From Polyangium mundeleinium (GTDB lineage Bacteria; Myxococcota_A; Polyangia; Polyangiales; Polyangiaceae), in the NCBI RefSeq assembly GCF_028369105.1, contig NZ_JAQNDO010000001.1:1715711-1779710 (forward strand): a stretch of 64,000 bases of DNA, read 5' to 3'. The notes under the pieces were generated by a model. It saw nothing but the letters and a program-made list of their open reading frames with translations, was not told the origin of the DNA and did no database searches. Shown here piece by piece: positions 13,514 through 51,987 of the stretch; the stretch's first letter is position 1; every line of letters starts with the position of its first letter. A program made the translations under genes and the position numbers.

Positions 13514-15019
13514 ATGGAAGGCGAACGCGGCGCGCCCCGGGTGCTCGTGCTGGGCCGTTATCGCGTGCACGACGAGATCGCGGCGGGCGGCATGGCCACG
13601 GTCCACCTCGGGCGGCTCGTCGGGGACGAGGGTTTTTTGCGGACGGTGGCGATCAAGCGCCTCCATCCCTGGCACGCGCGGATCGCCGAGGTCGTCGCGA
13701 TGTTCACGGACGAGGCGCGGATCGCCGCGCGGATCCGGCACCCGAACGTGGTGGGCACGCTCGACGTCGTGTCGCAGGAAGGCGAGGTCTTCCTGGTGAT
13801 GGAGTACGTGCACGGCGAGCCGCTGTCGCGGCTCATCAGCGCGGCGAGCAAGCGCAAGCAGAAGATCCCGCCGTCGATCGTGGCCGCGGTGCTCGCGAAC
13901 GCGCTGCGGGGGCTCCACGCGGCGCACGAGGCGAGGGACGCGCGGGGCGAGCCGCTCGGCGTGGTGCACCGCGACGTGTCGCCGCAGAACGTGCTCGTCG
14001 GCGCGGACGGCGTTGCGCGTGTGCTCGACTTTGGCATTGCGCGCGCGGCCGGGCGGGCGCACGTGACGAGCGACCATACGATCAAGGGAAAACTCGCGTA
14101 CATGTCGCCCGAGCAGCTCCGCGGGGAGGTGCTCGATCGGCGGGCGGACGTGTATGCGGCGGGCGTCGTGTTGTGGGAGACGCTCACGTGTCGGCGGCTT
14201 TATGCGGGCGCGTCGGAGGACCTCGCGCTCGTGCGCCTGCTCGAAGCCGAGGTCGAGCCGCCGAGCAAACGCGTGGCCGCGCTGCCCGCTTGTTTCGACG
14301 AGGTCACGTTGCGCGCGCTCCGGCGCGACGCGGACGCGCGTTTTCCCACGGCGCTCGAAATGGCGATGGCGCTCGAAGCGTGCGGGCCGCTGGCGACGCC
14401 GTCGGAGATCGCCGCGTGGGTCGAGGAAATGGCGGGGGATACGCTCGCCGAGCGCGCGCAGTTGATCCTGGCGATCGAGAGCGAGGAGCGCCGCTCGTTG
14501 CGGCCCATGCTTTCGAGCCCGTCCGCGCCGAGCCCCGAGGAGGCGACGTTGCTCCACGTGCAGCCGTCCCGAGAGGAGCCCCCGGCGGCGACGGTGGTGG
14601 CTTTGACGGCGAAAACGGAGGTGCCAAGTGCGGCGCCGATGCATGTGCCGGAGCGACGCGTGACGCCGGTGGTGCTCGGGCTCGTCGGGCTCGTTGGGCT
14701 CCTCGTGGTGGTGTTGATCGTCATTCTGCTCCGGGGTGTGCCGGCGAGCACCGCGTCCGCGCAGAGCGCGCCTTCGATCGCCATGAGCGTCGCCACGCCC
14801 GAATCCGTGGTCACGAGCGCGCCCTCCGCTGCGGCCGCGCCGGCGCCTTCCGCGACGAGCGTCGTTTCGGCGGCGCCGCCGAGCGTTTCGCCCAGCGGGA
14901 CCGCGTCGCCGCGCCCGACGACGCCGCGGGCGAAACCTGCCGCCGCGAGCGCCGGCTGCGATCCACCCTTCTTCATCGACGCGTCCGGTCGAAAAAAGTA
15001 CAAACGGCATTGCCTTTGA
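13514..15019 (+). CDS. Hanks-type Ser/Thr protein kinase with a TM helix and a Ser/Ala/Pro-rich extracytoplasmic tail.
   Basis: The catalytic motifs are intact: VAIKRL, HRDVSPQNVLV, LDFGIAR, YMSPEQ. A TM helix (VVLGLVGLVGLLVVVLIVILL) follows. It lies immediately downstream of the FHA-sigma54 activator. Confidence 0.9.
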   Translation: MEGERGAPRVLVLGRYRVHDEIAAGGMATVHLGRLVGDEGFLRTVAIKRLHPWHARIAEVVAMFTDEARIAARIRHPNVVGTLDVVSQEGEVFLVMEYVHGEPLSRLISAASKRKQKIPPSIVAAVLANALRGLHAAHEARDARGEPLGVVHRDVSPQNVLVGADGVARVLDFGIARAAGRAHVTSDHTIKGKLAYMSPEQLRGEVLDRRADVYAAGVVLWETLTCRRLYAGASEDLALVRLLEAEVEPPSKRVAALPACFDEVTLRALRRDADARFPTALEMAMALEACGPLATPSEIAAWVEEMAGDTLAERAQLILAIESEERRSLRPMLSSPSAPSPEEATLLHVQPSREEPPAATVVALTAKTEVPSAAPMHVPERRVTPVVLGLVGLVGLLVVVLIVILLRGVPASTASAQSAPSIAMSVATPESVVTSAPSAAAAPAPSATSVVSAAPPSVSPSGTASPRPTTPRAKPAAASAGCDPPFFIDASGRKKYKRHCL

Positions 15020-15468: not shown

Positions 15469-16470
15469 ATGCCAGACCTCTACGAAAGTCTCGCGGCAGT
15501 TTCCCAGAAGGATAAGCAGCGGCGGGAGCGTTGCCTCGCCTACGCGCGTGAGAACGCGGTGGGCCCGGTGGAGGGGCTCTTCGCGCAGGAAGGGATGGTG
15601 CGGCGAATTTGGCGGGAAGGGGCCATGCTGGCCGCCATTCCGCCGGCGGTGGTCCTGGAGGTGCTCCTGCCCGAGGTGGCCGAGGGCGTGGGGAGGTTCA
15701 GTGATTATCAAACGAAGCTGATGGCGAGGACGCGGCGGACGGTGTACGCGACCCACGCGCTCGTTTTCGGCGATCTGTCGATGTCGATCGAGGTGGGGGG
15801 GCGGATCTTTCAGCTCCACGAGCGGGTCCGTGGTTCGATTTCGGCGCGTTCGAGCGAGGGGCGGGCAGGCACGCGGTATCGCGCGAACGATCCGGCCGCC
15901 CTGCAATGGGTGTTCGCCACGCTGGTGCAGGGGGCGCTGATGACGTACGAGGCGGCCGTGGAGCCGCTCGATCGGGACGAGCGGGCGCGTTTTTACGAGG
16001 AGTCGAAGCGATGGGGCGCCGTGGTGGGTTTGCCCCCGGAGCAATTGCCGCCCGACTGGGAGAGCTTCGAGCGTTATTTCGAGGGGATGGTGGAGGGGGC
16101 GCTGGAGCTCGGGGACATGGCGCGGGATATCCTGCGGGTGCTTTTTGGTCCGCCGTACATGCGCGGGGTCGCGAGGCTCTGCGCGGGGCTCTTGCCAGAG
16201 CGGTGGCGGAGCGCGGTGGGTTTGCCCTGGGACGCAGACGCAAAACGGGCGTACGAGCTCGCGCTCGGCACACTTCGTGGAGCGAGGTTTTTGCCGCCGG
16301 CCTTGCGGTACGTGCCTGCGTGGCACCAGGCGGCGGCGCGAATCGAGGCGGCGCGGGGAGAAGGGGTTTCGAGGACGACGCGGATCGTGCAGGCGCTCGA
16401 CGCGCGCGGGTGGATCCCCGCGGGGCTCGCGCCGCCGGAAGAGGTGATGCGGAGGTGCCCGCGCGGTTAG
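15469..16470 (+). CDS. MpaB/DUF2236-family putative oxygenase.
   Basis: The 333-aa protein is unbiased and carries the conserved DUF2236 blocks (RANDPAALQWVFATLVQGALMTYE, FERYFEGMV). Confidence 0.55.
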   Translation: MPDLYESLAAVSQKDKQRRERCLAYARENAVGPVEGLFAQEGMVRRIWREGAMLAAIPPAVVLEVLLPEVAEGVGRFSDYQTKLMARTRRTVYATHALVFGDLSMSIEVGGRIFQLHERVRGSISARSSEGRAGTRYRANDPAALQWVFATLVQGALMTYEAAVEPLDRDERARFYEESKRWGAVVGLPPEQLPPDWESFERYFEGMVEGALELGDMARDILRVLFGPPYMRGVARLCAGLLPERWRSAVGLPWDADAKRAYELALGTLRGARFLPPALRYVPAWHQAAARIEAARGEGVSRTTRIVQALDARGWIPAGLAPPEEVMRRCPRG

Positions 16471-18647
16471 TCTTCGGCGATGGCCTGGAGGAACGTGCGG
16501 GCGGCCATCGGCCCGGACAAACGGTAGGCGGCGCGGCTCGGGCGCGGGCCGACGTGCATGGCGACGTGCGGGGGCGGAAGCGCGGCGAACATCTCCTCGT
16601 CGAGGAGGTCGTCGCCGAGCGCGACGAGGCGGGCGCCGGAGGGAGCGCCTTCGACGAGCGAAGCCACGAGCGCGCCGCTCCCCGCGCCCATGGGGCGAAT
16701 CTCGACGATTTTATCGCCGGGGAGGATCTCGACGGGCGTGTTTTTGAGCAGGTCGCCGAGGTGGAGCCGTAGCTCCTTGGCCTGGAGCACGCCGAACTCG
16801 GGGTCGGCCATGCGGTAATGGAAGGTGAGGGAGGCGCTCTTTTCTTCGAGCAAGGTGCCCGGGGTGCGGGCGACGAACTGGCGGAGCAGGGGCAGGAATT
16901 TCGCATTCCAATCGGAGGGGATGTCCGTGCGGGGGCGCCATTCTCGCGCCGAGGCGTCGCGCGTCCAGAAGCCGTGCTCGGCGGCGAGCGCGATGGGCAG
17001 GTCGCCGAGCCAGCGCTCGAGGACGTCGCGCGTCCGGCCGCTGACGACGTGGACGCGCGTGCCGGGGCGGCGCGCGAGGGCCGTGAGCAGGTGCCGGAGG
17101 TCCGCATCGGGCGCGGCGTCGTTGGGGGCGCGGGCGAACCGGACGAGGGTGCCGTCGTAATCGAGGAGCAAGGTGAGACGCGGCGCTTTGCGGAGGTCCG
17201 AGGTGAGGCTTTCGAGGGCCGCGGACGTGGTCGCGCCGAGCGAGCGCCCGCTCGACGCATCGGATTGCTCTTCGAGCGTGGAGAGGAAGCTCTGCGCCCA
17301 GTTGTGGACGTCGTCCTCGAGGACCCGCTGCCGGAGGTTTTGCATGCGCTGCCGCCGCTCGCCCTGAGGCATCGTGAGGGCTCGCTTGAGCGTGGCCGCG
17401 ACGCCGCCGATGTCGTACGGATTGACGAGCAAGGCGTCGGCGAGCTCCGAGGCGGCGCCGGCGAACTCGCTGAGGACGAGCACGCCGTCCTCGTCGGTGC
17501 GGGACGCGACGAACTCCTTGGCGACGAGGTTCATGCCGTCGCGCAAGGGCGTGACGAGCATGACGTCGGCCGCGCGATACAGGGCGGCGAGCTGGCGCTC
17601 GTTGAACGAGCGATACATGGAGTGAATCGGCACGGAATGCACCGTGGCGTAGGCGCCGTTGATGCGGCCCACGAGCTCGTCGACCCGGCTGCGGAATCCC
17701 TGGTAGGCCTCGACGTTGGTGCGCGAGGGGACGGTGACCTGGACGAGGCGGACCTTGCCGCGGAGCGAGGGTTCGCGTTCGAGGAGGCGCTCGACGGCGA
17801 GGAGGCGGCGCGGGATGCCTTTCGTGTAATCGAGGCGGTCGATGCCGAGCAGGATGCGCTGGCCGGGCTGGCGGAAGGTTTGCGCCTCGGCGGTGACCTC
17901 GGGCGAGCCGGCGAGCGCGGAGAGCGCGGCGGCGTCGATGCCCATGGGGAAGGCGCCGAGCCGGACTTCGCGTCCTTCCGTGAAGACACGATCGACGTTG
18001 GCTTCGAGGCCGAGCACGTGGAGGAGCGACGACGCGAAATGGCGCAGGTACGAGAGCGTATGAAACCCGAGGAGGTCGGCGCCGAGCAGGCCTTCGAGGA
18101 TCTGCGTGCGCCAGGGGAGGATGCGAAAGACCTCGGCGGAGGGGAAGGGGATGTGGAGGAAAAACCCGATCCGCGCGTTCGGAATTTTCTTTCGCAGGAG
18201 GCCGGGGACGAGCATGAGCTGATAGTCGTGGATCCAGACGAGGTCGCCTTCGCGGTGGTGCGCGGCGATGAGGTCGGCGAATCGCTCGTTCACGCGGCGG
18301 TAGCTCTCCCAGTCGCGCTCGCCGATGGGGACCTGGTCGAGCAGGTAATGGAAGAGGGGCCAGAGGACGCCATTGGAGAATCCCTCGTAAAACCTGGAGA
18401 CCTCGCCCGGGGAGAGGTGGAGCGGGACGTACCGGAGATCTTCGAGGCGCGCTTCGAGGGCGGCGCGCTGTTCGGGCGGGAGGCGCGAGACGTCGCCGGG
18501 ATAGCCGAGCCAGAGGCCTCCCGAGCGCTCGTGGGGCCCCTTCATGCCGGTCGCGAGGCCTCCGGCGCTCCGGGTGACGTGGACCTCGCCATGCTCGACC
18601 TTCACGGTGACGGGCAGGCGGTTCGAAACGAGGAGCAGGCGAGCCAT
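16467..18647 (-). CDS. otsA: Bifunctional trehalose-6-phosphate synthase / trehalose-6-phosphate phosphatase (OtsA-OtsB fusion).
   Basis: The GT20 synthase blocks are present ([40 protein letters not shown]). A C-terminal HAD phosphatase domain follows ([10 protein letters not shown]...). The start is [12 protein letters not shown], computed from the track ORF. Confidence 0.85.
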
Positions 18648-18677
18648 GGCGGGGGAGGGTGGCACCGACAGAAAGTT

Positions 18678-18702
18678 TTGTCCACCAACGATATGCGGAC
18701 AA
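18678..18702. promoter_or_regulatory. Perfect 6-bp palindrome pair TTGTCC-N13-GGACAA in the 5' region of the otsA fusion gene.
   Basis: The sequence ttgtccaccaacgatatgcggacaa lies about 30 to 55 nt upstream of the otsA start (minus strand), inside the 315-bp divergent intergenic region. That region is locally lower in GC. Confidence 0.3.
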
Positions 18703-18961
18703 ATACTGCTTTCCCGGACGAACGGCACCAGGGAGATTCGGAAACTTCTTGCAAGGCCCTGGGGACGTGGGTAAGGTGGCCGCGACGCTGACGAAGCGTC
18801 GCCCTATGGTCTCCTCGCGCTGAGCACGAACCCCCGCCATTGCGACGCCGCTGCTCCTCATTGGAGTCGAGTTCCGGTCGTTCGCTCGTGGCGGATCAGA
18901 AAACGTGGTTGCTGCCTGCTCGGACGTCGGCTTCGCGGCCGGCGTGTGTCTGGAGATCGGT

Positions 18962-19587: not shown

Positions 19588-21009
19588 TCAGATTCGCTTC
19601 ATCTGCGTCGGCGCGAGGCGCGCGAACCGGAGGACGAGCGCCGTCGCGACGGCGAAGAGCGCCGCCGTGAGCCCCCACCAGATCCCGACCGCGCCCATCC
19701 CGACGGCAAACCCGAGCAAGAGCGCGAGCGGAATGCCGAACGCGTAATACCCGACCACGTTCGCATTTCGCGCCGACGTCGTATCCCCCGCACCCCGGAG
19801 CGCGCCCGCCGCGACCGCCTGCGCGCCGTCCGCGAGCTGGAAGATCGCGGCGATGCGAATGAGCGGGACCGCCGCCGCGATGACGTTGGGTTTGTCCGAG
19901 AGGATCCGCGCGCAGAACGCGGGCGCCGCGGCGAAGACGACGGCCGAGAGGCTCATCACGGCGCAGGTCGAGGCGATGCCGAGGAGGCCGGCTTGGCGAG
20001 CGCCCGTGGAATCCCCACGGCCGACGGCGCGGCCGACGAGGACCGAGGTCGCATTCGACATGCCGAGCGCGATGGTGAACGAGAGGCTCGCGAGGGAGAG
20101 CGCGACCTGATGGCCCGCGGCAGCCTCGGGGCCGATCCACCCAGCGAAGATGCCCGCGATCGAGAAGGCGCCGACCTCCGCGAGCAGGTGCGTGCCGATG
20201 GGCCAGCCGACCTGGACGATGGAGCGCGTGGTCTCGCGATCGGCGCGGAGCTCCTCGGCGCGGACCCTGCCCTCACGCCGGACGATGTCCCGGAACACGA
20301 CGCCAAAGGAGACGAGCGAGGCGATGCTCGACGCGAGGCCCGAGCCGAGGACGCCGAGCGCAGGCAAACCGACCCGCGGGAGGCCGATGTAGGCGAGGCC
20401 CTCGTCGCCGTAGATGAGGAGGACGTTGCCGACGATGTTCGTGGCGTTCGCCCATACGGCCGACCACACGAGCGCGCGCGTGTACCCGCGGGCCTGGAGG
20501 TACACGCGGCAGGCCGTGACCAGGAGGAAAGGCACGACGTTGAGGAGGCGGCCGAGCAAGAAGTGCAGGACGTTGCGCGAGGTCTCGGCGTCGATGCCGG
20601 CGCGGCCGACGAGGAGGCCGGCGAGGACGATGATCGCCATGCACGGGATCGACAAAACGAGGCCGAGGCGCGCGGCCTGGCCGAGCACGGCGCGGGCGCG
20701 GCTGCGATCGCCCGCGCCCTCGGCCTGGGACACGAGCGGATCCATGCCCAGGATGAGGCCCATGAAGAGCACGGTGATCGAGAAAAAGATGCCGTTGCCG
20801 ATGCCGACGGCGGCGAGCGCGGTGGCGTCGAGGCGGCCGACCATGGCGGTGTCGACGAAGCCGAGGAGCTGATTGGCGACGAAGCTCAGCGTGATGGGTC
20901 CGCCGAGGGCGGCGATCTCGCGCAGCTCCGCGCTCCGCGTCCGCGGTCCTGCGGCCACCGTCTCGTCCACGATGCGCGAAGCACTGGGAATCGGGGCCAC
21001 GTCACTCAT
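19588..21009 (-). CDS. MATE-family multidrug/oligosaccharidyl-lipid efflux transporter.
   Basis: The 473-aa protein has 12 predicted TM helices with a MATE-like repeat organisation. Confidence 0.85.
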   Translation of the reverse strand: MSDVAPIPSASRIVDETVAAGPRTRSAELREIAALGGPITLSFVANQLLGFVDTAMVGRLDATALAAVGIGNGIFFSITVLFMGLILGMDPLVSQAEGAGDRSRARAVLGQAARLGLVLSIPCMAIIVLAGLLVGRAGIDAETSRNVLHFLLGRLLNVVPFLLVTACRVYLQARGYTRALVWSAVWANATNIVGNVLLIYGDEGLAYIGLPRVGLPALGVLGSGLASSIASLVSFGVVFRDIVRREGRVRAEELRADRETTRSIVQVGWPIGTHLLAEVGAFSIAGIFAGWIGPEAAAGHQVALSLASLSFTIALGMSNATSVLVGRAVGRGDSTGARQAGLLGIASTCAVMSLSAVVFAAAPAFCARILSDKPNVIAAAVPLIRIAAIFQLADGAQAVAAGALRGAGDTTSARNANVVGYYAFGIPLALLLGFAVGMGAVGIWWGLTAALFAVATALVLRFARLAPTQMKRI

Positions 21010-21067: not shown

Positions 21068-21532
21068 TCAGGCGGCGATTCGTTCGGCGATCGTGCGCAC
21101 GTCGAGCTGCGTGTAGTCCTTCTCGTGAGACGCGACGACAGCCTCGGCGACGTGGTTCGTGTGCGCGGCGAGCATGCTGCGCAGGAGGCCGAGGAACTTC
21201 GGCGGCGCGGCGAGGACGAGCTTGTGGAAGGCTTGCGTGTCGTAGAGCGCGGCGAGCCGGTCGGCGAGGCTACGCGCGAATTTCTCGGCCTCGACGTCCT
21301 TCGGATCGGTCCGGTAGTCCGGCGCGCTCTGGCCGCGTTTCCAGAACGTGCGGCCGGGTTTGTCCGCCATGAGATCGCGGGCCATCGCGCGGCTCTCGGG
21401 GTGCTCGAACTCCTCGACGAGCTCGAGCGGCGCGTTCTCCTCGAGGCCCTGCCGGAACAGGCGGGCTCGGCTCGCGTCGGCGACGAGGACGAACGTGATC
21501 CGTTCCGTTTCTTGCACGCGTTTTTCTTGCAC
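21068..21532 (-). CDS. Host-attachment-protein (Hap, PF10116) family protein.
   Basis: ERITFVLVADASRARLF...LELVEEFEHPESRAMARDLMADKPGR matches the Hap family fold. The start is uncertain: the family normally begins near the ITFVLVAD block. Confidence 0.55.
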   Translation of the reverse strand: MQEKRVQETERITFVLVADASRARLFRQGLEENAPLELVEEFEHPESRAMARDLMADKPGRTFWKRGQSAPDYRTDPKDVEAEKFARSLADRLAALYDTQAFHKLVLAAPPKFLGLLRSMLAAHTNHVAEAVVASHEKDYTQLDVRTIAERIAA

Positions 21533-21683: not shown

Positions 21684-21986
21684 ATGAGCCTGACAGGAAA
21701 GCAGCGCCGCCACCTGCGCGCGCTCGGCCATCACCTGGATCCCGTGGTCCAGCTCGGCAAACACGGGCTGACCGACGGGATTGTCTCCGCCGTGAACGAC
21801 GCGCTCGAGCAGCATGAGCTGGTCAAGGTGCGGGTCGGGACGGAGTGCCCCGACGAGCGCGGCGATCTCGCCGAAAAGATCCCGCCCGCCGTGCGCGCCG
21901 AGCTCGTGCAGGTGCTCGGTCGGACGATCTTGCTCTACCGGCGTCACCCGAAGGAGCCGAAGATCACGCTCCCGAAGGCCGGCTGA
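21684..21986 (+). CDS. yhbY: YhbY/CRS1 (CRM-domain) RNA-binding protein.
   Basis: The 100-aa protein reads LTGKQRRHLRALGHHLDPVVQLGKHGLTDGIVSAVNDALEQHELVKVRV, a canonical CRM domain with the GxxG loop. Confidence 0.8.
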   Translation: MSLTGKQRRHLRALGHHLDPVVQLGKHGLTDGIVSAVNDALEQHELVKVRVGTECPDERGDLAEKIPPAVRAELVQVLGRTILLYRRHPKEPKITLPKAG

Positions 21987-21999
21987 GCGCGGCCGGCCG

Positions 22000-22241
22000 T
22001 CAGGGCTTGCCGCGGGTATTTTCCTGCGGAGCGGCCAGGCGGGCGAGGATACGCTGAAGCTCCTCGACGCTCATGTCGATGTATTCGACGACGCGGCCGT
22101 AGAGCATCGCCGTGGGCACGTTGCGGCCCCCGCGCTCCTCCTGCGTCTTGTGGAGGACATAGAGCACGATGCGCTCCTTGCGGGTCAAGCCATCCCGCAC
22201 GTCGGGGAGGTTGTCGTAGGGGCCGGGCTGGTAGCGCTTCA
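22000..22241 (-). CDS. Small (80 aa) hypothetical protein.
   Basis: This is the unbiased C-terminal end of the 486-aa minus artefact ORF: MKRYQPGPYDNLPDVRDGLTRKERIVLYVLHKTQEERGGRNVPTAMLYGRVVEYIDMSVEELQRILARLAAPQE. It is divergent from the pseudokinase gene. Confidence 0.4.
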
Positions 22242-22347
22242 TGGTGCGGGAGCGTGGGCGTCTCTCGCCCAGACGCACGCTCCTACCCCTCCCGCCGAGG
22301 GCATGCAAGAATGGGCGCGCGATCCGGTTCGCCGACAACGACGAGTC

Positions 22348-24333
22348 ATGCGCTCCGCCAACGACATCCATCCCGGCGCCCTGATCGGCGGTAAATACCG
22401 CGTTCGCGCCATCCTCGGGCGTAAACATGGCCTCACGGTGGACGCGTTCCACACCGCGTTCGACCAGCGGGCCATCATCAAGCTGCTCCTGCCGCACCAG
22501 GCCGATGCGCGCGAGATCGAGCGCTTCCGCCGCGAGGCGCGCGCCCTCTCGAAGATCGCCTCCGAGCACGTCGCCCGCATCATCGACGTCGGCAACGAGG
22601 CCGACGGGACGTTTTACCTCGTCCGGCAGTACCTCGAAGGCATCGACCTCGAACGGCACGTCCGCAAGACCGGCCCGCTGCCGCTGCACGACGCGATCCT
22701 GTTCGCGCTGCAAGCCTGCGAGGCCGTGGCCGAGGCGCACGCGAACAGCATCGTCGTGCGTGATCTGGAGCCGTCGCACCTCTTCCTCACGCAGCGGACC
22801 GGCGGCGCGCCGCTCATCAAGATCACGGAGTTCGGCACGGCGAAGCTGCTCGGCGGCGCGCAGGACGCGACGGGCGAGCTCACGGGGACGGCGATGTTCG
22901 GGCTCACGCCGTACGCGTCGCCGGAACTCGTGCGAAAGGCGAAGGACGTCGACGCGCGCACGGATGTGTGGTCGCTCGGGACGATCCTCTACGAGATGCT
23001 CGCAGGTCGTCCGCCGTTCCAGGGTGAAGCCGCGTACCTGATGCTGCAGATCACGCGCGAAGAGCCGATGCGCGTGTCGCAACTGCGCGGCGATGTGCCT
23101 GCGGAGCTCGACACGGTGATCGGCTGGGCGCTCGCGAAGGACGTGGAGGCGCGCTTCCGGAGCGTGCACGCGTTCGCGCACGCGCTTTTGCCGTTCTCGC
23201 CGCCCGAGGGCCGGCTGCTCGTGGATCGGATCGGGCAGATCGCGCAGGCCGCGCGGGAGAGGAAGACGACCGGATCGGTGCCGCCGCCCGCGCCGCCGCC
23301 GTCGTCCCCGGCCACCGCGTCCGCGTGGCTGCCCGCGCCGACGCCGCCGCCCATGGGCGGGGGCATCGTGAACCCCGAGTTCGCGCACCTGCCCGCCGAC
23401 GACGACGCCGAGACAGGCGTGCACCTCGGCTCGGGGATCTACGGAGCGCCGGTGCCGCAAAGGTACATGGCTTCGGCGCTTCAGCAGGCTGCACCCGCGC
23501 AGGTGCCGATGGACGAGCCGATGACGGAGGTGTTCTCCGGGCCGGTCGTCATGCCTGCGGCTGCACCAGCGCCTGCGCCTGCGCCCGTTGCAGCGCCTGC
23601 GCCCGCTGTCGCTGCCGCACCTGCGCCCGCACCCGCGGCGGAGCCTGCGCCTGCACCGGCTGCCGCACCTGCACCTGCTCCCGCTGCCGCACCTGCACCT
23701 GCGCCCGCCGTCGCGCCCGACAGCTCGCGCATGATCCGCGTGCTCCTCGCGTTCTGCGCGGTCGGCTTGCTCGGCGTCGTCGTGCTCATGGTCATGCTCC
23801 TGCGCAAGCAGTCCGGCGAGCCGTCCGCCTCGACGACTTCGCAGTCCCAGGAGAACGGGCCCATCGCGATTCCCACGCCTCCGCCCGTCGCCACGCCCGC
23901 TCCATCGGCCGTCGCCGCGCCCCCGAGCACGCCAGCTCCTTCGGCCGCGCCCCCTCCGGCCGAGACCGCCTCCGCGGCGGCGTCTGCCGAGCCGCCCGCG
24001 TCCTCCGCGTCGGCCGTCGCGGCCGCCACGCCGCCGCCCTCGGGTGGGGACGAAGCGCCGAAGGGCGGCAGCGCCGGCGCGTCCGAGCCGACGAGCAAAG
24101 CGGCCCCGACGCCCGCGCCGGCCGCGGCGACCGGAACCCTCGTCGCCGTGGCGGTCGGCGGTCCGTGTTCGTTCACCGTGAACGGGGCCTCGAAGGGGAA
24201 GTCGTCGTCGCTGCGTTTGTCGCTGAAGGCCGGCACCTACTCGGTGACGTGCAAACCCACGAGCGGCGCCGCGAAGTCGAAGAGCGTGACCGTTCGACCG
24301 GGCGAAACGGCCATGGCCATGTTCAAGCTCTGA
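22348..24333 (+). CDS. Degenerate Hanks-type Ser/Thr kinase (probable pseudokinase) with an (Ala-Pro)n linker, one TM helix and a Ser/Ala/Pro-rich C-terminal tail.
   Basis: The kinase fold is recognisable but three catalytic motifs are altered. The HRDLKPxN motif reads VRDLEPSH, DFG reads TEFG, and the Gly-rich loop is weak (GGKYRVRA). The AxK Lys is kept (IIKLL) and the APE-like ASPEL is present. After the domain come APAPAPAPVAAPAPAV... repeats and then a TM helix (MIRVLLAFCAVGLLGVVVLMVMLL). Confidence 0.75.
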   Translation: MRSANDIHPGALIGGKYRVRAILGRKHGLTVDAFHTAFDQRAIIKLLLPHQADAREIERFRREARALSKIASEHVARIIDVGNEADGTFYLVRQYLEGIDLERHVRKTGPLPLHDAILFALQACEAVAEAHANSIVVRDLEPSHLFLTQRTGGAPLIKITEFGTAKLLGGAQDATGELTGTAMFGLTPYASPELVRKAKDVDARTDVWSLGTILYEMLAGRPPFQGEAAYLMLQITREEPMRVSQLRGDVPAELDTVIGWALAKDVEARFRSVHAFAHALLPFSPPEGRLLVDRIGQIAQAARERKTTGSVPPPAPPPSSPATASAWLPAPTPPPMGGGIVNPEFAHLPADDDAETGVHLGSGIYGAPVPQRYMASALQQAAPAQVPMDEPMTEVFSGPVVMPAAAPAPAPAPVAAPAPAVAAAPAPAPAAEPAPAPAAAPAPAPAAAPAPAPAVAPDSSRMIRVLLAFCAVGLLGVVVLMVMLLRKQSGEPSASTTSQSQENGPIAIPTPPPVATPAPSAVAAPPSTPAPSAAPPPAETASAAASAEPPASSASAVAAATPPPSGGDEAPKGGSAGASEPTSKAAPTPAPAAATGTLVAVAVGGPCSFTVNGASKGKSSSLRLSLKAGTYSVTCKPTSGAAKSKSVTVRPGETAMAMFKL

Positions 24334-24537
24334 GGCGGTTCGGGCAAGCGTCCATCCCCGTTCGTACGGGACGGCCCGGCTGCGGGATGGGCGCGCGGCT
24401 TGCTTTCGTGGGTGGCGGACCGTGCGGCATCAGGCCCGCACCTCCGGGGCAAGACGGTGAACCATCAAGAAGCGTTGCGGATCGAACCCGACCGTAGCAG
24501 CAGCCCACACCTTCCCGATCTGCGCGGGCCGCGGCGC

Positions 24538-25587
24538 GTGGACGGAGCGGAGAGCCGAGTCGGACAGCTCCTCGAAGCGCTGCGAAAGCACGAAGGCAGG
24601 CACGTCGTCGTCATCCGGGGATACCCGGACCCCGACAGCCTGGCGAGCGCATGGGCCCATCAAAGGCTCGCCGCGAGCGTGGGCATCGAGTGCGACATCG
24701 CGCACCTGCCGCTCGTGAGCCGAGCGGAAAATCGGGCGATGGTGAATTTGCTCGATCTCCCGCTCGTCCGCGTGACCGCGGCGGAAGACCTCGACCGGTA
24801 CAGCGCGCTGAGCCTGGTCGACGCAAACTCGATCGAGCTGCCGAGCAGCGCAGGGCTGCCTTGCGTATCCATCGTGGATCATCACGCCATTCAGGGAAAA
24901 CTCAACGCGGATTTCGTGGACATCCGGCTCGGCGTGGGCGCGGCGAGCACGATCTACACAGAGTACGTGATCGAGGCGCCGACGCGGGTCCTGGAGAGCG
25001 GGGCGATCGCGACGAGGCTCGCGACCGCGCTCGCGTACGGGATCCGGAGCGATACGGATGATCTGCTGCACGCGAGCGCCGACGATCTGCGGGCGCTCGC
25101 GAGCATCATCGAGCTCGTGGACACGGACGTGCTGAGCGCGCTGTCGCGGTACGCGATCCCGTCGAGCTCGATGCGGATCATGCGGCGGGCGCTGGAGGCG
25201 ATGCAGGTGGAGGGGACGTGGGTCTTCGCGGGCGTGGGGCAGGTGCGCTCGCAGGACCGAGACGCGATCGGGCAAGCCGCCGACTTCCTCCTCCGGCGCG
25301 AGGGGATCAAGACGGCGATCACGTTCGGCCTGGTCGAGGGGTGGATCGACGGCTCGCTGCGCACGAACGACGCGTCGCTGGATCCGGCGACGTGGCTGCG
25401 CGACGCGTTCGGCATCGGCCCGCTCGGGATGCCCTACGGCGGCGGGCGGCGCGGCAAAGGCGGCTTCCAGATCCCGCTCGGGCCGCTCGCGGCCTGCCCG
25501 AACCAGGACGCGCTGTGGCAGGTTGTCCGGGAAATGGTCGAGGACACGATCCGGAAACGGATCGGCACGTCGGACGAAGGCGGCTGA
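24538..25587 (+). CDS. DHH-family phosphoesterase (NrnA-like oligoribonuclease / pAp phosphatase).
   Basis: The DHH motif (SIVDHH), the DHHA1-like C-terminus and GGGRRGKGGFQ (the GGGH-like motif) are present. I place the start at a GTG; the track ORF begins at 24400, so the 5' end is uncertain. Confidence 0.65.
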   Translation: MDGAESRVGQLLEALRKHEGRHVVVIRGYPDPDSLASAWAHQRLAASVGIECDIAHLPLVSRAENRAMVNLLDLPLVRVTAAEDLDRYSALSLVDANSIELPSSAGLPCVSIVDHHAIQGKLNADFVDIRLGVGAASTIYTEYVIEAPTRVLESGAIATRLATALAYGIRSDTDDLLHASADDLRALASIIELVDTDVLSALSRYAIPSSSMRIMRRALEAMQVEGTWVFAGVGQVRSQDRDAIGQAADFLLRREGIKTAITFGLVEGWIDGSLRTNDASLDPATWLRDAFGIGPLGMPYGGGRRGKGGFQIPLGPLAACPNQDALWQVVREMVEDTIRKRIGTSDEGG

Positions 25588-25644: not shown

Positions 25645-26133
25645 TCAAACCGGGCGCCCTTCGTGTCCGCGGGGGACGGCGACGAGGGTCGGCTCGGCGG
25701 GCGGTTTGTCCTTGGCGGGCTCGCTGTCCGCGGCGCCGTCGCTGAAGGCGGCCGAGAGCTCGTTCACGAGGGCGAGCGCGTCGAAGGGCTTGGGGAAGAC
25801 ACGGCGGACGTCGAGGCCCATGATGCGCCGGCGGAGCTCGACGTGCGCCGAGACGACGATGATCACGCCCGGCCGCGTCTCGGGGGGTTTGCCGAGCAGC
25901 GCCCGAATGACGCCCACGCCGTCGAGGCGCGGCATCATCAAATCGATGACGAGCGCGTCGACACGATGGCGCTCGAGCAGCTTGAGGGCCTCGACGCCGT
26001 CGGCGGCGAGCAAGACGTCGAAGTCCGATACGACCAGGAGGTTGCGCATCGAATATCGAATCTCGTCGTCGTCATCGACGATCAGAACGGTTGGTCGCGA
26101 GCGCTTTCCCAATTTCGTGCCCCCCACTGGCAA
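25645..26133 (-). CDS. Single-domain response regulator (CheY-like receiver).
   Basis: TVLIVDDDDEIRYSMRNLL..VLLAADGVEAL....DALVIDLMMPRLDGVGV...VIIVSAH contains the phospho-acceptor Asp and the conserved Lys. The start is TTG or GTG and uncertain. Confidence 0.8.
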   Translation of the reverse strand: MPVGGTKLGKRSRPTVLIVDDDDEIRYSMRNLLVVSDFDVLLAADGVEALKLLERHRVDALVIDLMMPRLDGVGVIRALLGKPPETRPGVIIVVSAHVELRRRIMGLDVRRVFPKPFDALALVNELSAAFSDGAADSEPAKDKPPAEPTLVAVPRGHEGRPV

Positions 26134-27290
26134 TGAACCACTCCGTCCCTAATGAAGCCACCGTCGACGAACGCAAGGTGGTAACCGTGCAGGAGACGAC
26201 GATCGATTGGACCGAAGTGATCGCGCGGGCGCCCGATGGGGTGGTCTGCGCGGACGAACGTGGGCGGATCGTGTACGCCAATCCCGCGGCAGAGCGTCTC
26301 CTCGGGCGCTCGCCCGGAGAGCTCGTCGGAGAGTCGTTCCCCGAGCTCGTGGCGCTTCCCGACGGGGAAGGGCTTCGCTGGGACGAGGCGACGGTCGCGC
26401 CGGAGCGAGCCATCGGGCATCGAAAGGACGGGACGAACGTGCCGCTCGAGGTCTCGCTCGTGCCGCCCGGGGGCCACGCGTTCGCGACAGCCTTCGTGCG
26501 GGATCTGTCGGCGAGTGATCGGTCGGTCACGACGAAGTTGCTCGCCGCCGAGCGCGAGTCGTTCCTGTCGATGGCCGCGCATCAGCTCCGCGCGCCGATC
26601 CAGCCGGTGCTGAACTCGCTACGGACGATCGAGCGCGCGCTCGCCATCGGGACGACGCCGCCCGACGGGACGATGGCGCGCGCGCTGCGGCAGACGCTCC
26701 GGCTCGGGCGGCTCGTGGACGCGATCCTGAGCGACGCCGCGGCGATCGAGCGCGGGACGCTGGAAGTGCATGTGTCGCCCTTCGACCTCGCGGTCTTCAC
26801 GCGCGAGGTGGTGGAGGACTTCCGCCTGGCCGCGCCGTCGCAGCGGCTCGAGTACCACGGGCCCGGCGATGGGGTGCCCGTGACGTCGGATCCGGATCGG
26901 GTGCACCAGATCCTGATCAGCCTCATCGACAACGCGATGAAGTACTCGGGGCGGCAGCGCGTGGTGACGGTGGAGGTCGAGGGGACGGAGTCACGCGTGC
27001 GGGTGCGCGTGATCGATCAGGGGATCGGGATCCCGGCGGCGGAGCAGGCCAGCGTGTTCGGCAAGTTTTACCGCGGCTCGAACGTGCCGACGTCGGCGAG
27101 CGGGCTCGGTGTGGGGCTCTATCTCGCGCAAGGGCTCGCGAAGCGTCTGCACGGCAGCTTGACGGTCGCGAGCGAGGTGGGGCGAGGGAGCGCCTTCTCG
27201 CTGGTGCTGCCGAGGCATTGGCCGGAGGGCAAGGGCGTAGCGGCGCCGGCCCAACGAGGGAACCGCGATGAAAGCCGCCCGCCGCATTGA
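26133..27290 (+). CDS. PAS-domain sensor histidine kinase (PAS - HisKA - HATPase_c).
   Basis: The PAS block (APDGVVCADERGRIVYANPAAERLLG) is followed by the H-box (AAHQLRAPI), N-box (LISLIDNAMKYS), G1 (IDQGIGIP) and G2 (GLGVGLYLA). The ATG abuts the start of the divergent receiver gene. Confidence 0.8.
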   Translation: MNHSVPNEATVDERKVVTVQETTIDWTEVIARAPDGVVCADERGRIVYANPAAERLLGRSPGELVGESFPELVALPDGEGLRWDEATVAPERAIGHRKDGTNVPLEVSLVPPGGHAFATAFVRDLSASDRSVTTKLLAAERESFLSMAAHQLRAPIQPVLNSLRTIERALAIGTTPPDGTMARALRQTLRLGRLVDAILSDAAAIERGTLEVHVSPFDLAVFTREVVEDFRLAAPSQRLEYHGPGDGVPVTSDPDRVHQILISLIDNAMKYSGRQRVVTVEVEGTESRVRVRVIDQGIGIPAAEQASVFGKFYRGSNVPTSASGLGVGLYLAQGLAKRLHGSLTVASEVGRGSAFSLVLPRHWPEGKGVAAPAQRGNRDESRPPH

Positions 27291-50358: not shown

Positions 50359-51903
50359 TCACTTCGGGGCGGTCGTCGTCGCCGCCGGCGTGACCGGCCC
50401 GGAGCCAGGCTGCTTCGGACCCACGTCCGACGTCCCCACGGCCGCGGGCGGCGCCGGCGGCGAATGGGTTTGTCGGAACCGAAGGGCCACGAACGCGCCC
50501 ACCGCTGCGGCGAGCACCACCACGAGCGTCACGAGCAGGCGAACGCGGTCCGACCCTCCCGACGACTCGGGCGCCGCCTCGACCAGATCCGCCGGCGCCT
50601 CGACGGGCGCTCGTTCCTTCGTCCGCGCCGCGGGTGGCTCGGTCTTTGGCCCAGGGTTCCGGTCGAGCGTCGGCGTCACCGGCGGCGGCTCGATCGCCCC
50701 CGTGGACGGCAGGCTCGGGGGCGGCGGGATCTCCGGCGCGAGCGCGTCGGGCGCCTCCATCGACGGCGGCATGCTGCGCAGGTTCGGCAGACTCGCCCCC
50801 ACGCCCGGCTCGCTCCCGCCGTGCGCCGTATCCCCGCGCAGCACGCGCATCGACGACGCGGGCGCGTCCTCGGCCGACGGCGACGCCGCCTCGCTCTGCC
50901 GCAGCTTCGCGATCTGCCGCTCGATGATCTTCCGGATCTCGGTGCGTTTGTCCGCGTAGACCGACGTGACGTATTTGCCGATGTCCTCCGGCGTCACGCG
51001 CAGCCCCGCGCCGTCGAGGTAGCCGAGGATCGCCGCGCGCATCTCGGCCGCGGTCGCATATCGTTCCGCTGGATCGTACGCCAGCGCCTTCGCGCAGATC
51101 TTCGCGAGCGCCGGGGGTACGTCGGGACGAACCGACTCGATCGGCTCCATCTCGCCGGTCGCCAGCTTGTGGAGCACCTCCATGTCGGCGGCCTTGTCCC
51201 ACATCTTCCGGCCGGCGAGCATTTCCCACAGCACGATCCCTGCGACGAACACGTCGGCGCGCCGATCGAGCGGCCTGCAACGCACCTGCTCGGGCGCCAT
51301 GTACCCGAGCTTGCCTTTCATGATGCCCGTGCGTGTCTCCATCAGACGCACGTCGGCCTTCGCGATCCCGAAATCGAGCAGCTTGGCCTGACCGTCGTAC
51401 GAGACGATCACGTTGTGCGGGCTCACGTCGCGGTGGACGATGTTCAAGGGCTTGCCGTCGTAATCGGCGAGCTCGTGCGCGTAGTGCAGCCCTGCGAGCA
51501 CGTCGGCGAGGATCCTGAGCAGCACCCCGGGCGGCGGCGGCGTCTTCGTCCGCGAGGACCGGTTGATCAGCCGGTTCAGCGGCGCGCCTTCGAGGTACTC
51601 CATCGTGATGAAGTACACGTCGTTGTCCGCGTGCACCTCGAACGTCTGCACCACGTTCGGGTGATTGAGGCGCGTCGCGATCCGCGCCTCGTCGAGGAAC
51701 ATCTCCCGGCGCTCGGGATCCTCGGCGAACTCGGCGCGCAGCCGCTTCACGACCTGCAGCTTGTTCACGCCGAGAGGCCCCGCGACCACGGCGAGGAACA
51801 CGTCGGCCATGCCTCCACGGCCGAGGTTCGCGATCAGCTTGTACTTGCCGACGCTCACCGGCTCCTTATCGGCTAGGCTCTGCGCGGCAGACACAGAGCC
51901 CAT
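50359..51903 (-). CDS. Hanks-type Ser/Thr protein kinase with a TM helix. It is a paralogue of the kinase at 13514.
   Basis: The catalytic motifs are VVKRL, HRDVSPHNVIV, LDFGIAK and YMAPEQ. A Pro-rich linker and a TM helix (LLVTLVVVLAAAVGAFVAL) follow. The start is MGSVSAAQ. Confidence 0.85.
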   Translation of the reverse strand: MGSVSAAQSLADKEPVSVGKYKLIANLGRGGMADVFLAVVAGPLGVNKLQVVKRLRAEFAEDPERREMFLDEARIATRLNHPNVVQTFEVHADNDVYFITMEYLEGAPLNRLINRSSRTKTPPPPGVLLRILADVLAGLHYAHELADYDGKPLNIVHRDVSPHNVIVSYDGQAKLLDFGIAKADVRLMETRTGIMKGKLGYMAPEQVRCRPLDRRADVFVAGIVLWEMLAGRKMWDKAADMEVLHKLATGEMEPIESVRPDVPPALAKICAKALAYDPAERYATAAEMRAAILGYLDGAGLRVTPEDIGKYVTSVYADKRTEIRKIIERQIAKLRQSEAASPSAEDAPASSMRVLRGDTAHGGSEPGVGASLPNLRSMPPSMEAPDALAPEIPPPPSLPSTGAIEPPPVTPTLDRNPGPKTEPPAARTKERAPVEAPADLVEAAPESSGGSDRVRLLVTLVVVLAAAVGAFVALRFRQTHSPPAPPAAVGTSDVGPKQPGSGPVTPAATTTAPK

Positions 51904-51987
51904 GTTCGTTCCGATCGCGCATCCGCGCAAGCGGGATCCGCCGTGCCGGAACGGCAGGTTTTCGACGCACGGCGCCCGGATCCGCGA

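Follow-up and report, generated by a model that had tools for sequence, protein, structure and literature searches.

The locus considered here raises the question of what a protein annotated as a serine/threonine kinase can do when several of the residues that serve phosphotransfer have been replaced. The protein is encoded by Polyangium mundeleinium in a stretch of 64,000 nt whose G+C content of about 70% fits a myxobacterium (the window, to which all coordinates refer), where its gene occupies positions 22348..24333 on the + strand. The answer favoured here, with somewhat more confidence than doubt, is that it would be a non-catalytic inner-membrane receptor or scaffold regulated by other kinases through phosphorylation or dimerisation. 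This reading is preferred because the kinase fold is intact and constrained, the residues of phosphotransfer have drifted, the layout is N-in/C-out and a conserved β-sandwich domain lies on the outer side of the membrane. The annotation as a serine/threonine protein kinase would then probably be better given as that of a pseudokinase receptor.

The open reading frame (ORF) extends from an ATG at 22348 to a TGA at 24331-24333 and specifies a single-pass membrane protein of 661 aa with an N-terminal kinase-like domain, which matches an NCBI protein of P. mundeleinium named "serine/threonine protein kinase" (P0001) with 100% identity along its entire length. As homologues begin at the same Met in the alignment consensus, the start is called correctly, as it had been in an earlier reading of the letters alone (the sequence-only reading). 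That reading had also proposed a layout of kinase domain, APAPAP spacer, transmembrane helix, outer Ser/Ala/Pro-rich region and globular C-terminus, each element of which was recovered: the kinase-like domain is followed by a cytoplasmic linker that includes the Ala-Pro spacer, by the transmembrane helix, by a Pro/Ala/Ser-rich linker and finally by the β-sandwich domain. The absence of a signal peptide together with the presence of only one transmembrane helix points to an N-in/C-out topology with a single pass through the membrane.

The kinase-like domain comprises aa 1-305 (22348..23262, +) and is supported by Pfam, AlphaFold2 (AF2), Foldseek and the ratio of nonsynonymous to synonymous substitution rates (dN/dS). 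Its fold had been called clear in the sequence-only reading, and several lines of evidence agree with this. The Pfam Pkinase profile (PF00069) matches aa 27-279 with 114.6 bits against a cut-off of 31.7 (E=6.8e-33) and is covered from position 12 to position 261 of 263. A structure model, which the same reading had recommended, was built with AF2 for aa 1-305 from an alignment of 84 sequences and shows a bilobal kinase fold with a predicted local distance difference test score (pLDDT) of 89.1 and a predicted template modelling score of 0.88. Disorder in this model is confined to the activation loop at aa 169-183 (pLDDT <50), which contains a TxT motif, and the domain ends in an additional conserved helix at aa 286-304. 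The best structural matches found by Foldseek are the Mycobacterium tuberculosis PknB entries 1mru and 5u94 (E~1e-19, template modelling scores of 0.76-0.89, ~30% identity), and its neighbours, all with a probability of 1.00, are PknB and PknA of M. tuberculosis and Stk1 of Staphylococcus aureus. Sequence searches of the PDB lead to the same group, with StkP of Streptococcus pneumoniae and PknB of M. tuberculosis matched at E~1e-35 to 1e-32 and about 30% identity. NCBIfam returns sub-threshold matches only, to kinase equivalogs that include the PASTA kinases; the model PknB_PASTA_kin (NF033483) scores 180.3 bits against a cut-off of 450, with the match limited to the kinase domain at aa 11-283. 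A Pfam scan of the 661-aa protein gave no match to PASTA repeats either, and membership of the PASTA kinases was rejected on both grounds.

Within this fold the catalytic motifs are altered. The sequence-only reading had reported a changed HRDLKPxN, a DFG turned into TEFG and a retained AxK lysine, and had allowed that the motifs might have been offset when read by hand. Motif positions were therefore taken from alignments to PknB of M. tuberculosis (whose sequence was confirmed by the PDB matches), to StkP (with HMMER) and to two other kinases of the window, which start at 13514 and 50359. Three independent alignments give identical motif positions, so that an offset is rejected: the replacements had been read correctly and the motifs are genuinely changed.

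The first of them is the Gly-rich loop L23-GRKHGLTV-31 (22414..22440, +), which reads G24-R-K-H-G-L and has Lys at the second Gly of GxGxxG, a motif expected of a competent kinase. The β3 Lys, K45 (22480..22482, +), is retained in the form AIIK, with Ile for the Ala of VAIK; it aligns with PknB K40, and as the αC Glu (E63) is present as well, the salt-bridge pair of VAIK Lys and αC Glu is kept. In the catalytic loop, V136-VRDLEPSH-144 (22753..22779, +) stands in place of (I/V)HRDLKPxN. Here His is replaced by Val, Lys by Glu141 and Asn by His144, which departs from the HRDxKxxN of a competent kinase, and Arg138 and the catalytic Asp139 are kept. The metal-binding Asp of DFG, likewise expected of a competent kinase, is Glu161, encoded by GAG, so that the motif reads EFG (22828..22836, +). 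SPE, D206 and R269 are kept, the activation loop has its full length (aa ~160-193) and there are no large insertions in the domain. The motif T179-G-T181 (22882..22890, +), near-invariant among relatives and disordered in the model, is a candidate phospho-acceptor by analogy with T171 and T173 of PknB.

Bacterial pseudokinases have been defined by the loss of at least one of the VAIK Lys, the HRD Asp and the DFG Asp (bioRxiv 10.1101/2025.01.12.632604). By this three-residue rule the window protein is a pseudokinase because its DFG Asp is Glu, and it has further lost both the Lys and the Asn of the catalytic loop as well as the second Gly in the Gly-loop. The codon at position 161 is GAG in this gene and in that of Polyangium fumosum and GAC (Asp) in Polyangium jinanense and Polyangium sp. 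y55x31. EFG therefore arose recently, through the change of one base, in the lineage of P. mundeleinium and P. fumosum. The earlier description of the protein as a catalytically impaired scaffold thus gains from the three-residue rule and from the drift seen across the family, whereas the EFG on which it partly drew is not a family hallmark. Catalytic impairment of the window protein is predicted from sequence.

Relatives of the window protein are numerous. A database search returned 422 of them at E<=1e-10, the best 120 of which are ~580-810 aa long, with one fragment of 367 aa in addition, and share 40-86% identity with the window protein. A scan of one genome per species gave 412 loci confirmed by tblastn. 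The best 80 of these come from Polyangium, Byssovorax, Chondromyces, Minicystis, Polyangiaceae or unclassified Myxococcota or deltaproteobacterial metagenome-assembled genomes (MAGs); named Myxococcus-type genera are absent, several MAGs carry no label more precise than Myxococcales, Myxococcota or deltaproteobacterium, and all that are assigned below the phylum level are Polyangia. On the best 80 of the 412 loci, the family is restricted to Polyangia. Nearly all members with enough sequence have the same layout of kinase-like domain, Pro/Ala-rich linker, transmembrane helix, further linker and C-terminal domain of ~65 aa. Two clearly different paralogues each are found in P. fumosum, P. jinanense, three further Polyangium isolates, Minicystis rosea and many MAGs. 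The second Polyangium paralogue (loci L033, L036-L039 and L001) has Arg in β3 (VAIRLL), reads IFRE(L/M)QPQH in the catalytic loop and keeps DFG; it sits in an unrelated context, for instance near DUF3570 and DHOR genes in Polyangium aurulentum.

Residue counts from 186 non-identical kinase-like domains of the family separate the scaffold of the fold from its active site. Roughly one in four columns of the kinase domain shows essentially no variation; these include E63 of αC, R138 (the HRD Arg), F162-G163, E193 (the APE Glu), D206 of subdomain IX and R269 of subdomain XI. The TxT motif is nearly so, with T181 present in 183 of 184 sequences and T179 in 178 of 184. The catalytic positions behave differently. 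A degenerate Gly-loop is a hallmark of the family, with a column entropy at its second Gly that ranks at the 98th percentile of the domain; for the Ala of VAIK, members have Val, Ile or Ala, most of them Val. The β3 position is Lys in 121 domains, Arg in 64 and Gln in one. Further hallmarks are that the HRD His gives way to a hydrophobic residue (Leu, Val, Phe or Ile) and the catalytic Asp at position 139, in most members, to Glu (164 Glu and 22 Asp, hence acidic in 186 of 186), that the catalytic-loop Lys at position 141 is Gln, Ser or Glu, and that His stands at the Asn position, 144 (127 His, 20 Thr and 18 Asn, the others being D/S/A/Q/R). The DFG Asp is mostly kept (179 Asp, five Glu and one His; n=185), and the five with Glu include the window protein and that of P. 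fumosum. In the wider family, therefore, most members depart from the three-residue rule at the HRD Asp, which is Glu, and a third also at the Lys, which is Arg; the Polyangium clade is unusual in having Asp, not Glu, at the catalytic-base position. Variable catalytic positions on an invariant scaffold fit a non-catalytic role, and the loss of different catalytic positions in different lineages is what would be expected if catalysis were not the selected function.

Several observations weigh against such a role. The window protein keeps the β3 Lys, the αC Glu and the catalytic Asp, and its nearest orthologues keep the DFG Asp and with it the full Lys/Asp/Asp triad, which makes them nominally active by the three-residue rule. 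The replacements of Lys by Arg and of Asp by Glu conserve charge, and the His at the Asn position could ligate a metal, which makes residual or atypical activity, or nucleotide binding, conceivable. In addition, the gene of a DHH-family phosphoesterase-like protein that adjoins the window gene is absent from most paralogous loci. The protein could thus be a working atypical Ser/Thr kinase in which phosphotransfer falls to K45, E63 and D139, Mg2+ or Mn2+ is bound by E161 and H144 in place of the DFG Asp and the catalytic-loop Asn (unless the reaction is metal-independent, as in CASK) and the altered Gly-loop affects affinity only. This alternative, the main rival and one considered rather unlikely, is entertained because the three residues are present, the nearest orthologues keep the triad and several of the substitutions preserve charge. 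It draws further on the retention of the HRD Arg, on the DFG Asp and the acidic catalytic base that nearly all or all members possess, on the conservative and not random nature of the substitutions, and on the combination of TxT with an RD arginine, which is typical of kinases activated by loop phosphorylation. Several features speak against it. The key second Gly of the Gly-loop is replaced and highly variable; Ile or Val for the Ala of VAIK narrows the adenine pocket; the catalytic-loop Lys, which binds the γ-phosphate, is charge-reversed to Glu; and the Mg-binding Asn is lost to a range of residues that is unlike a conserved metal ligand. Moreover, the changes of the catalytic Asp to Glu and of the β3 Lys to Arg, found in 164 and 64 of the 186 domains respectively, are ones that have been used experimentally to kill kinases.

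Loss of catalysis could also mean loss of function, in which case the gene would be a decaying paralogue or relic. The very many kinase paralogues carried by myxobacterial genomes, the loss of some catalytic residues and the repeat-rich, variable low-complexity linkers could all be read in this way. Comparison with four Polyangium orthologues and one more distant MAG gave dN/dS values of 0.02-0.16 for the kinase-like domain, 0.04-0.21 for the C-terminal domain and 0.23-0.38 for the linkers. Across this Polyangia-wide family, strong purifying selection acts on the two folded domains. These low ratios, along with an intact ORF, the invariant quarter of the kinase-domain columns and an architecture shared by loci throughout Polyangia, exclude a relic, and the idea is regarded as hardly credible.

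The same strong selection on the whole domain would be compatible with a fold that has been repurposed, whether for AMPylation, known from SelO, for glutamylation, known from SidJ, or as a pure switch that binds a nucleotide or metal by means of the conserved Glu, His and Asp. The replacements are charge-preserving and fairly conserved (RE(L/I)QPxH in the catalytic loop and a His in the Gly-loop, GRxHGL), and precedents have been summarised (PMC12599244). Against this, the likeness to SelO and SidJ ends at the general fold, and the nearest neighbours in structure and sequence are ordinary PknB-type kinases. Of the candidate active-site residues, neither the one at the His144 position nor the Gly-loop His is constant from one subfamily to another, and no partner domains point to new chemistry. 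A repurposed fold is accordingly thought very unlikely.

If the protein is a non-catalytic receptor, as is favoured here, the part that faces the envelope becomes important. The C-terminal domain (aa 595-661, 67 aa; 24130..24330, +) is modelled as a β-sandwich of seven strands with a pLDDT of 88.7 and has the small transthyretin-like or carboxypeptidase-regulatory-like fold, similar to that of PEGA domains. Assignment to Pfam PEGA (PF08308) was rejected, as the domain scores 16.2 bits against a gathering threshold of 20.8 (E=0.01) and three relatives reach 12-13 bits or give no match; a literature search for kinases with PEGA domains found nothing relevant. Two Cys residues, C607 and C635, are invariant in the family, which fits a periplasmic disulfide, and they probably form one.

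A profile of the C-terminal domain collected 1690 cluster representatives that fall into three groups: other kinase-like proteins, which carry the domain at the C-terminus, short predicted lipoproteins with two copies of it, and giant multi-repeat proteins. In the first group, P0171 (889 aa) has HGD and DFA for HRD and DFG, a central region of ~500 residues and the same C-terminal domain after a transmembrane helix, from which it follows that the domain is common to several degenerate kinase architectures. The tandem-pair proteins of ~190-280 aa (P0126, P0127, P0129 and P0268, at loci L086-L090) include a cluster-mate from Labilithrix, P0268, and others from myxobacterial MAGs; an N-terminal hydrophobic signal sequence with a lipobox-like Cys was read by eye in P0126, P0127 and P0129. 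Genes for such two-domain lipoproteins have no conserved neighbourhood, and no copy was found in the window or in the flanks of the family loci. It is possible that they are soluble partners or decoys of the receptor.

The segments that join the two folded domains are far less conserved. The cytoplasmic linker contains a short acidic Thr motif, D351-DDAET-356 (23398..23415, +), which is the Polyangium-clade variant of an EDSxT visible in the alignment consensus of the family, where its form is [ED][ED]S[VFL]T.[VIL][RK]. In 85 of 119 linkers from homologues, the regular expression [DE][DES].T has a match at a similar position, the linker being otherwise unconserved, which makes this acidic Ser/Thr motif a candidate phosphorylation or docking site. 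It is followed by the (Ala-Pro)n spacer at aa 403-456 (23554..23715, +; A 57%, P 35%), encoded by a tandem repeat that Tandem Repeats Finder places at 23553-23708 with 5.7 copies of a 24-nt period. The sequence-only reading had described a rigid APAPAP spacer. The spacer is indeed there, on the cytoplasmic side of the membrane; its rigidity was an assumption, as no other part of the protein is so poorly conserved, and the spacer varies in length among relatives (close orthologues have protein lengths of 586-669 aa). The single transmembrane helix at aa ~462-485 (MIRVLLAFCAVGLLGVVVLMVMLL; 23731..23802, +) has a Kyte-Doolittle maximum of 2.95 over 19 residues at aa 465-483, and all 60 homologues examined have an equivalent hydrophobic segment. 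Beyond it, the extracytoplasmic low-complexity linker at aa 486-594 (23803..24129, +) is rich in Ala, Pro and Ser (A 28%, P 23%, S 16%) and is not conserved in the family.

The overall arrangement of a cytoplasmic kinase domain, a juxtamembrane linker, one transmembrane helix and an extracytoplasmic sensor is that of receptor kinases of the PknB, StkP and Stk1 type. PknB of M. tuberculosis, which provides the closest solved structures and sequences, also has the activation-loop TxT. By contrast, the Gly-loop, the HRD His, the catalytic-loop Lys and Asn and the DFG Asp are degraded in the window protein, and a single PEGA-like sandwich takes the place of PASTA repeats on the outside. R10, L33 and D76 of PknB form the interface of its back-to-back N-lobe dimer, with which the PDB titles 'L33E mutant' and 'D76A mutant' are consistent. 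Their equivalents in the alignment, K16, F38 and D80, show no or almost no variation across the family.

A receptor of this kind would not signal by phosphorylating substrates but would act as a regulated scaffold or allosteric partner. The β-sandwich, probably stabilised by its disulfide, would bind a ligand or protein of the envelope or periplasm, and the kinase-like domain could relay the signal through back-to-back dimerisation of its N-lobe (K16/F38/D80) with itself, with a paralogue or with an active kinase. It might also be phosphorylated in trans by one of the many active Hanks kinases of the organism, with the near-invariant TxT, which could dock on the retained HRD Arg, as a candidate site and with the acidic Ser/Thr motif of the juxtamembrane linker as a further candidate. 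Binding on the outer side would be comparable to that of PpkA, a single-pass Hanks kinase whose small C-terminal periplasmic domain binds the periplasmic proteins RtkS/TagR (PMC6082577). PpkA is active, as it autophosphorylates and phosphorylates Fha, and the periplasmic domains share only ~10% sequence identity. A more speculative scheme, to which little probability is given, has the partly conserved active-site replacements (Asp to Glu at the catalytic base in most members, Asn to His, Lys to Arg in one paralogue and a His within the former Gly-loop) re-tune the pocket for another ligand, metal or reaction, to give a nucleotide- or metal-gated switch or a non-canonical enzyme; the two paralogues of a genome might then heterodimerise obligately, and the two-domain lipoproteins might be ligands or decoys.

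For the non-catalytic receptor, the best functional analogy is the MviN pseudokinase of M. tuberculosis, a membrane-tethered Hanks-type pseudokinase that serves as a phosphorylated scaffold. It is phosphorylated by PknB and FhaA is recruited, it forms back-to-back dimers, and it has an outer domain beyond its C-terminal transmembrane helix (PMC12599244). The sequence-only reading had called bacterial pseudokinases of this layout poorly characterised, in agreement with this 2025 review. Seven bacterial families have been named, ActPs1-3, GLW, CP1, DYD and DLHK (bioRxiv 10.1101/2025.01.12.632604; PMC12599244), and these often have a transmembrane helix C-terminal to the kinase-like domain (PMC12599244). 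The actinobacterial ActPs3, which is fused to a MurJ-like flippase, has VALT and LSID, has lost DFG and ~40 residues of the activation loop and fills its ATP site with aromatic residues (PMC12599244; bioRxiv 10.1101/2025.01.12.632604). The window protein differs from MviN and ActPs3 in keeping the Lys, the Glu, the Asp and a full-length activation loop, in standing alone and in belonging to Polyangia; membership of ActPs3 was rejected on account of the retained Lys and Asp and the complete loop. GLW proteins have GLW for HRD and Leu or Trp for the β3 Lys (PMC12599244), whereas VRD and K45 are present here, and this family was rejected as well. ActPs2 is described by a β3 Arg, HRN, a deletion of DFG and large insertions (PMC12599244); it was rejected in view of K45, VRD, EFG and the lack of large insertions, and what it has in common with the paralogous branch of the Polyangia family is the change of the β3 Lys to Arg. 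The kinase atlas further lists two serine/threonine kinase families specific to Myxococcota, neither of which is among the seven pseudokinase families, and none of the seven is reported to be specific to that phylum (bioRxiv 10.1101/2025.01.12.632604). No description of a Polyangia pseudokinase family was found in the literature, of which coverage was partial, and so far the family appears to be undescribed and set apart from GLW, ActPs2 and ActPs3 by their described motifs.

No pseudokinase of Myxococcus xanthus is known to share the C-terminal domain or the motif set, and what these proteins have in common with the window protein is the general phenomenon. In that organism, 11 of 99 serine/threonine protein kinases lack a catalytic residue and several of the predicted pseudokinases are developmentally regulated (PMC6791715). 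A phosphatome paper contains no data on pseudokinases.

Which kinase would act on such a receptor was sought in the gene neighbourhood. The sequence-only reading had proposed a pairing with one of the two active kinases of the window, at 13514-15019 (+) and 50359-51930 (-). These lie 7 and 26 kb away with unrelated genes between them and the pseudokinase gene, and a further kinase lies within 6 kb at only nine of 85 related loci, because of which gene order lends no support to the pairing; the partner kinase is not identifiable in this way. Both window kinases read HRDVSPxN, with Ser for the catalytic-loop Lys, and have the VAIK Lys, the HRD Asp and DFG intact. The most distant family members, L083 and L084, read HRDLSP, which is close to this motif and hints at a descent from that kinase type. 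In the 13514 kinase, a transmembrane helix and a Ser/Ala/Pro linker precede a short Cys-flanked C-terminal motif, CDPPFFIDASGRKKYKRHCL (14950-15016, +), a module different from and much smaller than the β-sandwich of the pseudokinase.

Directly 3' of the pseudokinase gene is the DHH-family phosphoesterase-like gene (24400-25587, +), the true start of which is probably near 24457 and whose Pfam DHH score of 23.9 bits is below the cut-off of 28.1. It occupies the same position at all Polyangium-clade loci with enough sequence, at the Byssovorax locus L024 and at the Minicystis locus L025. A scan of 21900-24600 for promoters and terminators found nothing, and as there is no terminator-like site between the two genes, co-transcription is possible. 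The DHH protein, as the sole conserved neighbour beyond the Polyangium clade, may thus be a candidate output of the receptor or a protein that functions together with it. On the other side lies a divergent ORF of 80 aa (22000-22242, -), which tblastn finds with 63-100% identity at loci L003 and L005-L015 (gene calls of 72-80 aa) and which only the Polyangium clade keeps in this position. Searches of Pfam, NCBIfam and the PDB yielded no match for this ORF, and those of NCBIfam and the PDB brought no useful result for the DHH gene either.

Further upstream are a fusion of trehalose-6-phosphate synthase and phosphatase (Glyco_transf_20 and Trehalose_PPase; 16467-18728, -), a MATE transporter (19588-21009, -), a Host_attach/baeRF family-12 protein (21068-21532, -) and a YhbY/CRM RNA-binding protein (21684-21986, +), the last two of which also occur at the P. 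jinanense locus. A response regulator (25645-26133, -) and a PAS histidine kinase (26091-27290, +) follow downstream of the DHH gene. No type VI secretion genes were seen adjoining the pseudokinase gene, and the distant or paralogous loci L001, L002 and L004 have no neighbours in common with it.

Membrane-anchored Hanks-type pseudokinases of bacteria are an already established concept, so that the finding alone amounts to a refinement of annotation and not to a new principle, and no function can be assigned by sequence. Such proteins are only now being catalogued, however, and very few of them, such as MviN and EssB/YukC, have a known function. The gene marks a large, strongly conserved and lineage-restricted family of receptor-like proteins with at least two paralogues in many genomes, and at the level of the family its pattern is clear-cut and open to experiment. 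With different catalytic losses in different lineages and some members that still have the full Lys/Asp/Asp triad, the family forms a natural series on which one could study how receptor kinases become non-catalytic signalling modules, and it could also help to trace the wiring of the very large kinomes of Polyangia.

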